Position numbers and translations under genes: made by a program. From Eledone cirrhosa (lineage: Eukaryota), in contig CAXHJY010000750.1 of assembly GCA_964016885.1 (NCBI GenBank), forward strand, positions 43,801 to 107,800: a stretch of 64,000 nt of DNA, written 5' to 3'. The notes beneath the pieces were generated by a model that saw only the letters and a list, made by a program, of their open reading frames with translations, was not told the origin of the DNA and made no database searches. The number at the start of each line of letters is the position of its first letter. Position 1 is the stretch's first letter. Shown one piece after another: positions 41,513 through 44,618 of this stretch.

Positions 41513-42003
41513 TATATGTTATATGTATATATATATATACATATGTATATATATATACATATACATATATATATACATATACATATATATATACATATAC
41601 ATAATATATATATATATATATATCTATATATACACATATATATATATACATATATATATATATATACATATATATATATATATACATATATATATATATA
41701 CATATATATATATATATATATATATACATATATATATATATATATATATATATATATATATATATATATTTAAAACACACAGATACATGCGGACACACAC
41801 ATATATACATGAATGCATCCGCACCCAACTGTGAGTTAAGGGTGCCAAACTTCACCGATGTTGCTCAATGAATGACTGGGACAGACCAATTCAGTTTGAA
41901 CCAGACTGAACCAGTATCAGAGTTAAAAATACATTATGAAGAGAGAAGAAACATTTAGATATAATTAGTAATAAAATGTATCATACCTAAACTGTTCCTA
42001 AAT

Positions 42004-42091
42004 TCCTCGACTACGTAGTTTCGTGGCATAAACAAAAACAATATATCAAAGATATAGAGTCCTTGCGAGGTCTGCCAACTTATCAAGAGGA
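42004..42091 (-). ncRNA. Type I hammerhead, U3-A8 variant
   Basis: Reverse complement of 43474-43561. Confidence 0.8.
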
Positions 42092-42594
42092 TACCTCATT
42101 TTACTAGTCTCAAGAACGCGTCTACACGACGTGAGAAAGAATCCCAAAAGGCGGAGGGGGAGATAGTCACGCGATATAACGGTCGAGAAACAGAGCTAAG
42201 CCTCTTATAACCACGAAGAAAATACCACGGAGGCGGAGGGGGTATTCATATCGAGGCCGTAGAAGAGGTAGTGAAGAAGGCGAGAAGTATGAGTAATGGA
42301 AGCTTTCCAGTTGTCCCCACACTTCAAAGATTGCTCGACCAGAGGGAGTTATTAATATATTTAAAAACACACAGATACATGCGGACACACACATATATAC
42401 ATGAATGCATCCGCACCCAACTGTGAGTTAAGGGTGCCAACTTCACCGATGTTGCTCAATGAATGACTGGGACAGACCAATTCAGTTTGAACCAGACTGA
42501 ACCAGTATCAGAGTTAAAAATACATTATGAAGAGAGAAGAAACATTTAGATATAATTAGTAATAAAATGTATCATACCTAAACTGTTCCTAAAT

Positions 42595-42682
42595 TCCTCG
42601 ACTACGTAGTTTCGTGGCATAAACAAAAACAATATATCAAAGATATAGAGTCCTTGCGAGGTCTGCCAACTTATCAAGAGGA
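42595..42682 (-). ncRNA. Type I hammerhead, U3-A8 variant
   Basis: Reverse complement of 43474-43561. Confidence 0.8.
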
Positions 42683-43473
42683 TACCTCATTTTACTAGTC
42701 TCAAGAACGCGTCTACACGACGTGAGAAAGAATCCCAAAAGGCGGAGGGGGAGATAGTCACGCGATATAACGGTCGAGAAACAGAGCTAAGCCTCTTATA
42801 ACCACGAAGAAAATACCACGGAGGCGGAGGGGGTATTCATATCGAGGCCGTAGAAGAGGTAGTGAAGAAGGCGAGAAGTATGAGTAATGGAAGCTTTCCA
42901 GTTGTCCCCACACTTCAAAGATTGCTCGACCAGAGGGAGTTATTAATATATTTAAAAACACACAGATACATGCGGACACACACATATATACATGAATGCA
43001 TCCGCACCCAACTGTGAGTTAAGGGTGCCAACTTCACCGATGTTGCTTAATGAATGACTGGGACAGACCAATTCAGTTTGAACCAGACTGAACCAGTATC
43101 AGAGTTAAAAATACATTATGAAGAGAGAAGAAACATTTAGATATAATTAGTAATAAAATGTATCATACCTAAACTGTTCCTAAATTCCTCGACTGTGTTT
43201 TTAAATATATTAATAACTCCCTCTGGTCGAGCAATCTTTGAAGTGTGGGGACAACTGGAAAGCTTCCATTACTCATACTTCTCGCCTTCTTCACTACCTC
43301 TTCTACGGCCTCGATATGAATACCCCCTCCGCCTCCGTGGTATTTTCTTCGTGGTTATAAGAGGCTTAGCTCTGTTTCTCGACCGTTATATCGCGTGACT
43401 ATCTCCCCCTCCGCCTTTTGGGATTCTTTCTCACGTCGTGTAGACGCGTTCTTGAGACTAGTAAAATGAGGTA

Positions 43474-43561
43474 TCCTCTTGATAAGTTGGCAGACCTCGC
43501 AAGGACTCTATATCTTTGATATATTGTTTTTGTTTATGCCACGAAACTACGTAGTCGAGGA
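43474..43561 (+). ncRNA. Type I hammerhead, U3-A8 variant
   Basis: Stem I TCCTC/GAGGA; core TTGATAA; stem II GT(T)GGCA..TGCCAC with a ~44-nt insert; GAAA; palindromic stem III CTACGTAG; GTC, cleavage after 43556. Confidence 0.82.
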
Positions 43562-44064
43562 ATTTAGGAACAGTTTAGGTATGATACATTTTATTACTAA
43601 TTATATCTAAATGTTTCTTCTCTCTTCATAATGTATTTTTAACTCTGATACTGGTTCAGTCTGGTTCAAACTGAATTGGTCTGTCCCAGTCATTCATTGA
43701 GCAACATCGGTGAAGTTGGCACCCTTAACTCACAGTTGGGTGCGGATGCATTCATGTATATATGTGTGTGTCCGCATGTATCTGTGTGTTTTTAAATATA
43801 TTAATAACTCCCTCTGGTCGAGCAATCTTTGAAGTGTGGGGACAACTGGAAAGCTTCCATTACTCATACTTCTCGCCTTCTTCACTACCTCTTCTACGGC
43901 CTCGATATGAATACCCCCTCCGCCTCCGTGGTATTTTCTTCGTGGTTATAAGAGGCTTAGCTCTGTTTCTCGACCGTTATATCGCGTGACTATCTCCCCC
44001 TCCGCCTTTTGGGATTCTTTCTCACGTCGTGTAGACGCGTTCTTGAGACTAGTAAAATGAGGTA

Positions 44065-44152
44065 TCCTCTTGATAAGTTGGCAGACCTCGCAAGGACTCT
44101 ATATCTTTGATATATTGTTTTTGTTTATGCCACGAAACTACGTAGTCGAGGA
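44065..44152 (+). ncRNA. Type I hammerhead, U3-A8 variant
   Basis: Identical to 43474-43561, 591 bp downstream. Confidence 0.82.
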
Positions 44153-44618
44153 ATTTAGGAACAGTTTAGGTATGATACATTTTATTACTAATTATATCTA
44201 AATGTTTCTTCTCTCTTCATAATGTATATATATATATATATACATATATATATATATATATATATATATATATATATATACATATATATATATATATATA
44301 TATATATATATATATATATATATATACATATATATATATACATATATATATATACATATATATATATACATATATATATATATACATATATATATATATA
44401 TATACATATATATATATACATATATATATATATACATATATATATATATATATATATACATATATATATATACATATATATATATACATATATATATACA
44501 TATATATATATATACATATATATATACATATATATATACATATATATATATACATATATATATATACATATATATATATACATATATATATACATATATA
44601 TATATATATATATGGTTT

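Follow-up and report, generated by a model that had tools for sequence, protein, structure and literature searches.

Paired insertion ends and single-haplotype arms of a hammerhead retrozyme family in Eledone cirrhosa: a genomic record of likely two-site Penelope-like priming, probably of a ribozyme-made circle

A 64,000-nucleotide stretch of the Eledone cirrhosa genome (the whole stretch that was analysed, referred to below as the window) contains two opposed arms of tandem 591-nt units, each unit with a predicted hammerhead ribozyme, enclosed by (AT)n. How is such an inverted array formed, and was its point of inversion set by the self-cutting site of the ribozyme, as an earlier note on this DNA had proposed? 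The DNA of the window is animal-like and (AT)n-rich, and lies on a small contig of a 3.0-Gb assembly. With positions 43194-43784 (591 nt) taken as the repeat unit, the window contains the following parts of the insertion, together with a second, short insertion of the same family.

41512 to 41769, no strand: left (AT)n target tract
41764 to 43194, minus strand: B arm, 1,431 nt or 2.42 units; begins (5') at unit 360/361 and ends (3') at site B, unit 8-17, where it meets the left (AT)n
41764 to 41928, minus strand: 165-nt tail from site A to site B at the insertion's left terminus, with no counterpart at the right terminus
43191 to 43194, no strand: inner junction, head to head with 1 nt of overlap; the B arm continues for 3-4 nt past the predicted cut (43191/43190)
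43194 to 44227, plus strand: A arm, 1,034 nt or 1.75 units; begins (5') at unit 1-2 and ends (3') at site A, unit 443, where it meets the right (AT)n
43637 to 43801, plus strand: internal tail copy; the region 43625-43808 is strongly structured (z -6.6), and a long hairpin immediately 5' of site B is conserved
44225 to 44613, no strand: right (AT)n target tract
51710 to 51858, no strand: a further, short insertion of this family in (AT)n; A arm of 47 nt (minus) and B arm of 79 nt (plus), separated by 23 inserted nt

The two arms of the main insertion stand head to head between the (AT)n tracts, with both 3' ends facing outward. The left edge of the B arm falls at 41764 if AT microhomology is included and at 41770 without it. 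The measured lengths agree with the roughly 2.4 minus-sense and 1.75 plus-sense near-identical units counted in the earlier note, and the units are 99.6-100% identical to each other, differing by an extra base near 41847, a substitution at 43048 and one base lost from an A-run at the left end. No target-site duplication is readable in the (AT)n target tract. The same note had seen no credible open reading frame, and the longest ATG-initiated frame is indeed 75 aa in the sense and 45 aa in the antisense direction, indicating that the retrozyme has no protein-coding ORF. The reverse transcriptase (RT) and GIY-YIG ORF of an autonomous Penelope-like element (PLE) is absent from the retrozyme, and comparison with the Neptune protein gave no tblastn match (E above 8). 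Each unit had also been assigned one hammerhead, and a motif scan located four complete type I hammerheads in the window.

42004 to 42091, minus strand: type I hammerhead, predicted cut 42009/42008
42595 to 42682, minus strand: type I hammerhead, predicted cut 42600/42599
43474 to 43561, plus strand: type I hammerhead, predicted cut 43556/43557
44065 to 44152, plus strand: type I hammerhead, predicted cut 44147/44148

The ribozyme is a minimal type I hammerhead with a 5-bp stem I, a U3:A8 core instead of C3:G8 and a long extension of stem II (~45 nt). Its predicted cut, at unit 363/364, is preceded by an 8-nt palindrome that would form a dimeric stem III. Scanning of the mapped loci and the window gave 259 matches to one motif type. 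An Rfam search returned no hammerhead match at the gathering score, nor at E up to 10, and the ribozyme call thus rests on the motif scan and on conservation; weak matches to Rfam microRNA families merely reflect hairpins. Differences within the ribozyme core (13/8,830) are about ninefold rarer than elsewhere (1,764/129,784), with counts that are not independent, and the core is 96-100% identical to that of a sister subfamily with 75% overall identity. The palindrome duplex has a predicted energy of -14.3 kcal/mol. When the ribozyme region was folded alone (z -0.78), the active fold was not obtained, as expected of a dimer-type motif. The circular monomer fold had a z of -6.2 (30 shuffles). 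When 13 diverse monomers were folded as circles, stem I was unformed in 13/13, a prediction that would fit a circle that does not recut itself.

Exact matches to the 3' half of the ribozyme number 7,444 genome-wide. Among the unit matches listed, at least 30, from about 18 places, show 100% identity and the top score, and these identities indicate that the family has recently been active, as the earlier note had supposed. The family is dispersed, multicopy and retrotransposed in character, with 5'-truncated copies and fixed 3' ends, and the two-armed architecture recurs at dozens of places on chromosome-scale contigs. Three samples were mapped: 37 loci from a DNA search (40 scored of 475 candidates), all 50 loci behind the first 100 matches to the ribozyme pattern, and 20 loci picked by a 3' end at site A. 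The presence of a ribozyme or of a full unit was the basis for selecting the majority of loci, a choice that could miss arms stopped at the first cut. In C1:0-54 Mb, however, 29/33 A ends already lay within ribozyme-picked loci, and the remaining four stop at unit 406, 379, 333 and 349; the sampling bias is small.

Mapping yielded 90 insertion rows for 89 distinct insertions. Fifty-two rows are two-armed, of which 51 are distinct (L112 is duplicated), and all are head to head. The outer ends of their arms lie at one of two sites 165 nt apart, A (unit 439-444) and B (unit 7-19), both of which are short AT-rich motifs that merge with the target repeat. Pairing of one A end with one B end was strict in 45/51 two-armed insertions and accompanied by a shifted end call in 2/51 (L064, L121), while one end was interrupted in 4/51; A+A or B+B pairs numbered 0/51. 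Site A is placed on the left in 22 rows and on the right in 24. The 38 one-armed copies end at B (22), at A (15) or elsewhere (1), and in at least two of these copies (L043, L063) a stub of the other end is concealed. Among the 20 A-picked loci, all ten mappable second arms end at B. Genome-wide, exact junction patterns, one variant pattern for each end, detected 2,593 A ends and 1,169 B ends, and contigs from a public sequencing run contain loose AT-repeat ends at both A and B. The fixed, paired outer ends, absent from the earlier note, are a real signal.

The sister subfamily, represented by 23 distinct loci of 25 selected on the tail, uses sites A and B of the main family. Its 20 two-armed loci comprise 17 A+B pairs, one clear B+B pair (L190), one possible B+B pair (L198) and one interrupted case, demonstrating that the pairing rule is not absolute. 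The stretch from A to B is a Penelope-like tail, bounded by two RT start sites. In folds of the isolated tail, A and B are predicted to pair in a stem; it is strong in only 1/13 whole circles, and Neptune tails have no significant fold. Lacking support from the whole-circle folds and from Neptune tails, this stem was rejected as the basis of pairing and left out of the model.

Adjacent to the retrozyme array lies a protein-coding element, which provided a comparator.

39375 to 41511, minus strand: neighbouring Neptune-type Penelope-like element, 5'-truncated and frameshifted, with RT, CX4CxxC linker, GIY-YIG and its own hammerhead near 39537

This element is a separate insertion, assigned to the Neptune type by the motif given in PMC8557442. 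Its family in this genome has an ORF of ~1,240 aa and a tail of 61 nt, and across 32 loci every two-armed insertion with both end motifs seen (8/8) pairs A' with B'. The adjacent copy was rejected as a sequence parent of the retrozyme, with no homology to the unit. Likewise, the PLE parts of 62 PLE or GIY-YIG loci, including 30 of the best GIY-YIG loci among 10,597 candidates, have no homology to the retrozyme unit, the only matches being the retrozyme's own insertions. No PLE ORF is linked to the sister subfamily at 25 loci, and no partner was found among the other PLE fragments in the mapped retrozyme loci. The genome holds many intact PLE ORFs. Comparison of the Neptune protein with viral contigs gave no match.

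The inner junctions were compared with the predicted cut. In the window, the repeat and the ribozyme are far beyond chance, whereas the two positional coincidences, of the inversion with the cut and of the A arm with site B, are not. The earlier note placed the start of the minus arm 4 nt from the cut; the distance is correct (3-4 nt), but the start lies beyond the cut, on its uncut side, and such proximity is at chance level. Similarly, the plus arm does begin near site B (unit 1-2, 7-16 nt away), but A arms starting near B occur in 4/51 insertions against 3.2 expected (p=0.40). With the window excluded, 5' ends of arms fall at unit 359-369 in 2/163 cases, against 3.0 expected if uniform, and at unit 354-374 in 5/163, against 5.8. 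Genome-wide filtered patterns, designed to pass an equal share of junctions, counted 7 arms with their start at the cut, compared with 10 for a control position 10 nt downstream and 0 for position 360; on inspection, 7/7 cut and 10/10 control matches were real arm starts. The inversion points are thus scattered, and are not set by the self-cutting site. The earlier note had itself named random breakpoints in other copies as evidence against its reading, and its proposed stop of RT at the ribozyme-cleaved 5' end does not account for the inversions.

In 165 arms, 279 predicted cut sites are read through; an indel check on about 277 such crossings found none, and cut-window indels number 0/3,601 observations, compared with 271/135,013 elsewhere. 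The bin at unit 361-390 has a nominal excess of stops, 13/163 against ~8 if uniform, and in L153, one of the 7 cases with a start at the cut, both arms stop at 364/365, as cleaved linear RNA would give. The L153 junction and the fuller bin indicate that cleaved RNA may occasionally serve as template. Among 45 inner junctions, 29 have an overlap of 1-5 nt, 7 are blunt and 9 contain inserted bases. Both arms start within 12 nt of the same unit position in 4/51 insertions, which is not an enrichment (p=0.17).

The template was examined through sequence variants in 51 two-armed loci, a set from which rows without both A and B ends were dropped and to which A-picked loci were added. Derived variants fixed in both arms number 181 and arm-specific ones 0; 73/106 distinct fixed variants are private to one locus, and 32 different variant sets occur, although these counts are not independent, owing to shared ancestry. 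Mismatch is 54/21,355 (0.25%) between arms in register and 282/127,695 (0.22%) between units out of register, compared with 3.1% between loci. Six apparently register-specific rows among 17,599 informative sites were rejected as gap-placement artefacts on inspection of the raw sequence (L115, L123, L159). Non-fixed sites are all singletons (65/65), none being common to a subset of an arm's units, and present arrays contain 55 distinct single-unit variants. The two arms of an insertion show no correlation in length (rho 0.007), the longest arms spanning 7.5 units. A new variant found in every unit of both arms requires a one-unit bottleneck followed by reiteration, and a ligated circle would be the simplest source of that bottleneck. 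The single haplotype of each insertion and the absence of scars at the crossed cut sites point to repeated copying of a circular monomer, and the indel-free crossing argues against RT jumping between cleaved monomers. Homogeneous units would also be expected from linear transcripts of many young, uniform arrays.

Insertion into (AT)n with two fixed ends is likely explained by a Penelope-like RT-endonuclease that acts in trans and primes at A and B of a probably circular 591-nt RNA. This agrees with the earlier note in identifying an element of the hammerhead retrozyme type that arose when a multimeric or circular RNA was reverse-transcribed. In the proposed pathway, a multi-unit locus would be transcribed, and two neighbouring hammerheads would pair via their palindromes and cut out a monomer, which would then be ligated into a circle where the ribozyme is predicted to be unfolded. 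A PLE protein, probably a Neptune-type dimer, would nick (AT)n on both strands, and each DNA 3' end would anneal to the short AT-rich motif at A or B. Both RTs would roll round the circle for independent, variable lengths, after which microhomology-type repair would join the two cDNA 3' ends, creating a head-to-head inversion at an arbitrary point. A primer left unextended would give a one-armed copy. We more tentatively suggest double rolling-circle target-primed reverse transcription, in which a dimeric PLE opens the AT repeat, its halves load asymmetrically at two sites of one ribozyme-made circle, and each rolls independently; this fuller version is plausible, though slightly doubtful.

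The main rival retains two-site priming by a PLE and dispenses with the circle; transcription of young, uniform genomic arrays would supply a linear multimer that serves uncut as the template. In vitro, a Poseidon PLE used mainly RNA that had not been processed, and ribozyme mutants inserted normally (PMC11167929), scar-free read-through fits uncut RNA equally well, and uniform arrays of seven or more units are present in the genome. However, 5' truncation would shorten the arrays in each cycle, yet uniform multi-unit arms are seen with each of the 32 variant sets of the 51 loci; the 17,599 sites yielded no genuine register-specific variant despite the 55 single-unit variants available in arrays; and the ribozyme core is conserved far above the remaining sequence. 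We therefore regard a linear multimer as unlikely, while taking it seriously. Short insertions might instead have been expanded later at the DNA level, by slippage or unequal crossing-over in the manner of a satellite, as proposed for vertebrate retrozymes (bioRxiv 10.64898/2026.07.22.740005). Such expansion would preserve the A and B ends and homogenise the units of an arm, but it predicts variants present in several units of one arm, whereas arm-specific and subset-shared variants both number 0, and the many arms of less than 2 units cannot seed it; this explanation is quite improbable.

The idea that RT ran off the 5' end of ribozyme-cleaved RNA, and that the inversion formed there, draws on the window junction, on the arm stops of L031, L054, L060 and L126 at unit 357-363, and on L153. 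Against it are the lack of enrichment at the cut, in the sample and genome-wide, the 279 cut sites read through, and the window arm itself, which extends past the cut into sequence that the cleaved product lacks; run-off is very unlikely as a general account and is refuted for the family, though it may hold for a small minority of copies. Twin priming, the L1-type model on one linear RNA, requires A arms that stop at B. The window would fit, with its A arm starting beside site B, and the few loci with both arms starting at nearly the same unit position would suit either twin priming or fold-back copying of the first cDNA; but neither that class nor A-arm stops at B exceed expectation. Moreover, fold-back would leave one arm lying wholly within the sequence of its partner, a requirement that L033 (arms of 927 and 872 nt) and comparable loci break, and neither process yields a fixed second site, making both highly improbable. 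An assembly artefact from palindromic or chimeric reads might be suspected of a window on a small contig, and no contig spanning its junction was seen in four public runs. The arms are nevertheless unequal, with different ends and unique flanks, dozens of other copies on chromosome-scale contigs share this architecture, and a public run contains both types of end; the probability of an artefact is negligible.

Priming by a PLE at two sites, probably of a circle, can be compared with known systems. Like the metazoan non-LTR retrozymes (PMC7229834; bioRxiv 10.64898/2026.07.22.740005), the family consists of non-coding tandem repeats with one type I hammerhead per unit and a GC content below 50%, is present in thousands of copies and co-occurs with PLEs. 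The 591-bp unit lies within the 51-972 bp range of bioRxiv 10.64898/2026.07.22.740005 and above the 150-450 bp of PMC7229834, and, unlike in the retrozymes of the latter, its ribozyme belongs to the minimal PLE type, with U3:A8 in the core. Circles have been shown for coral, mussel and axolotl retrozymes, with circle-templated synthesis of tandem cDNA by PLE RT hypothesised (PMC7229834), and a derivation of animal retrozymes from PLEs has been argued from co-occurrence and pseudo-LTR similarity (bioRxiv 10.64898/2026.07.22.740005). Inverted two-armed insertions, fixed paired ends and (AT)n targeting are unreported in the consulted sections of these two sources, and the words 'inverted' and 'microsatellite' have 0 occurrences each in the main text of PMC7229834.

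For PLEs, by comparison, an inverted 5'-truncated copy, a 30-40 bp tail often at one end only and a (TA)n bias have been described (PMC8557442), the tail being the stretch between two internal RT start sites, with both DNA strands cut and extended and a dimer predicted (PMC11167929); in that study, ribozyme cleavage was not required, and no strand difference in the start site was seen in vitro. The retrozyme resembles Neptune-type and Poseidon PLEs (PMC8557442; PMC11167929) in its partial tandems, inverted 5'-truncated arm, one-end tail and AT-rich or (TA)n targets, and endonuclease-bearing PLEs in the position of its hammerhead, a short way 5' of the RT start sites (80 nt from A). It differs from Neptune-type PLEs in lacking an ORF, in its tail, whose 165 nt exceed both the published 30-40 bp and the 61 nt of the Neptune family of this genome, and in having no homology to the PLEs sampled. 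The U3-A8 variant and palindrome-mediated dimer folding were described for PLE ribozymes (PMC4209133), and the present ribozyme shares with PLE pseudo-LTR hammerheads, including the U3-A8 form of Schistosoma Cercyon, a short stem I, a palindromic loop 3, U3-A8 covariation and the occurrence of opposite-strand pairs a few hundred bases apart. It is unlike those hammerheads in forming true tandem arrays, in its ~45 nt stem II extension and in going undetected by Rfam models. Chlamys MRC1 (PMC8557442) is likewise a non-coding PLE dependant with multicopy head-to-tail insertions; Chlamys elements, however, are mostly without canonical hammerheads, and their non-autonomous members resemble the 3' end of their partners, a resemblance not found here.

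The retrozyme thus behaves like a non-autonomous Penelope-like element, with an inverted arm, a one-end tail and a (TA)n target that shows no recognisable target-site duplication, and has all the features of a metazoan non-LTR retrozyme that genomic sequence can reveal. Descriptions of the element class, the ribozyme variant and the tail already exist. Paired fixed ends or one-haplotype insertions were not reported for any retrozyme in the literature searched, which comprised full-text searches, main texts and few subscription papers.

In the literature consulted, the mobility of animal retrozymes, through a circle and a PLE enzyme, has been hypothesised from co-occurrence and pseudo-LTR similarity. 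The family described here carries the PLE insertion signature itself, in its paired start sites, inverted arm and (AT)n target, and its pattern of one haplotype per insertion is what a circular template predicts. It cleanly documents two-site PLE priming at the genome level and, probably, rolling-circle copying of a circle produced by the ribozyme. A 591-nt RNA with mapped start sites offers a compact test substrate for tail and inversion formation by PLEs and for rolling on circles. If double rolling-circle copying is correct, each insertion would be the clonal record of a single circular RNA, one mechanism would explain the PLE tail, the inverted arms and the tandem arrays of retrozymes, and the family would constitute genomic proof of the proposed circRNA life cycle.

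The outer ends of the retrozyme arms are fixed at site A (unit position 443) and site B (unit position 17), each of which lies directly 3' of a long hairpin. Comparison by eye of the 26-nt stretches that terminate at site A (window 43611–43636) and at site B (window 43776–43801) revealed 15–16 matching positions, and these stretches are possibly a duplicated recognition motif. At some inner junctions, where the two arms of an insertion meet head to head, 9–63 extra bases were observed (loci L035, L051 and L143 elsewhere in the assembly, and window 51757–51779). These consist partly of short repeated copies of unit sequence, a pattern as from stuttering re-priming while the arms join. 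At L112 (G000:C1:19617000-19626900), one two-armed insertion is present twice, 2.55 kb apart and with an identical junction, reflecting either duplication at the DNA level or a duplicate introduced by the assembly.

The first Neptune-type Penelope-like element (PLE) family (window 39375–41511 and loci L088–L099) is young and very abundant, with 39,372 candidates, 150 of which were scored and showed 96–100% identity. It carries its own hammerhead, includes several open frames of 1,150–1,260 aa, and has a 61-nt tail that starts ~20 nt inside the ORF; at L098 the element forms a multi-kilobase tandem. A second Neptune-type family (L165, L134, L095, L043 and L144) shares ~62% amino-acid identity with the first; its first end site is homologous and its tail measures ~47–60 nt.

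Further hammerhead-bearing features were detected in the window:

38492–38813, near-perfect inverted pair flanked by (AT)n tracts, each arm with a canonical-core hammerhead-like motif
45391–45446, plus strand, minimal hammerhead
46143–46197, plus strand, minimal hammerhead
45558–45745 / 46025–46212, inverted pair containing a minus-strand minimal hammerhead

The first is probably a further short two-armed PLE-type insertion. The three related minimal hammerheads, within 45391–46212, constitute another PLE-type family. Approximately ten more minimal type I hammerhead families were found in ~1.2 Mb of (AT)n-rich flanks (fetched loci L031–L176), many of them with a palindromic loop 3.

A motif scan detected no hammerhead core in a seven-copy window repeat, whose copies share 96–99.8% mutual identity, all lie within (AT)n, and have one fixed end and variable opposite ends:

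26155–26760, copy 1
31052–31657, copy 2
36432–36817, copy 3
37752–38337, copy 4
44618–45044, copy 5
49975–50581, copy 6
55471–56025, copy 7

These copies are probably the 3' ends of a LINE, since by eye the minus strand resembles the closing portion of a reading frame that includes a C2H2 zinc finger, followed by a short 3' UTR.

A sister retrozyme subfamily (L177–L201; 1,834 candidates) has a 590-nt unit with 75% identity to the 591-nt unit. It shares its ribozyme core with the 591-nt family and its ends are homologous, with a weaker resemblance between the 26-nt stretches at sites A and B. Intermediates at 80–95% are also present. Given this divergence with shared core and ends, together with the intermediates, the retrozyme lineage is long-lived.
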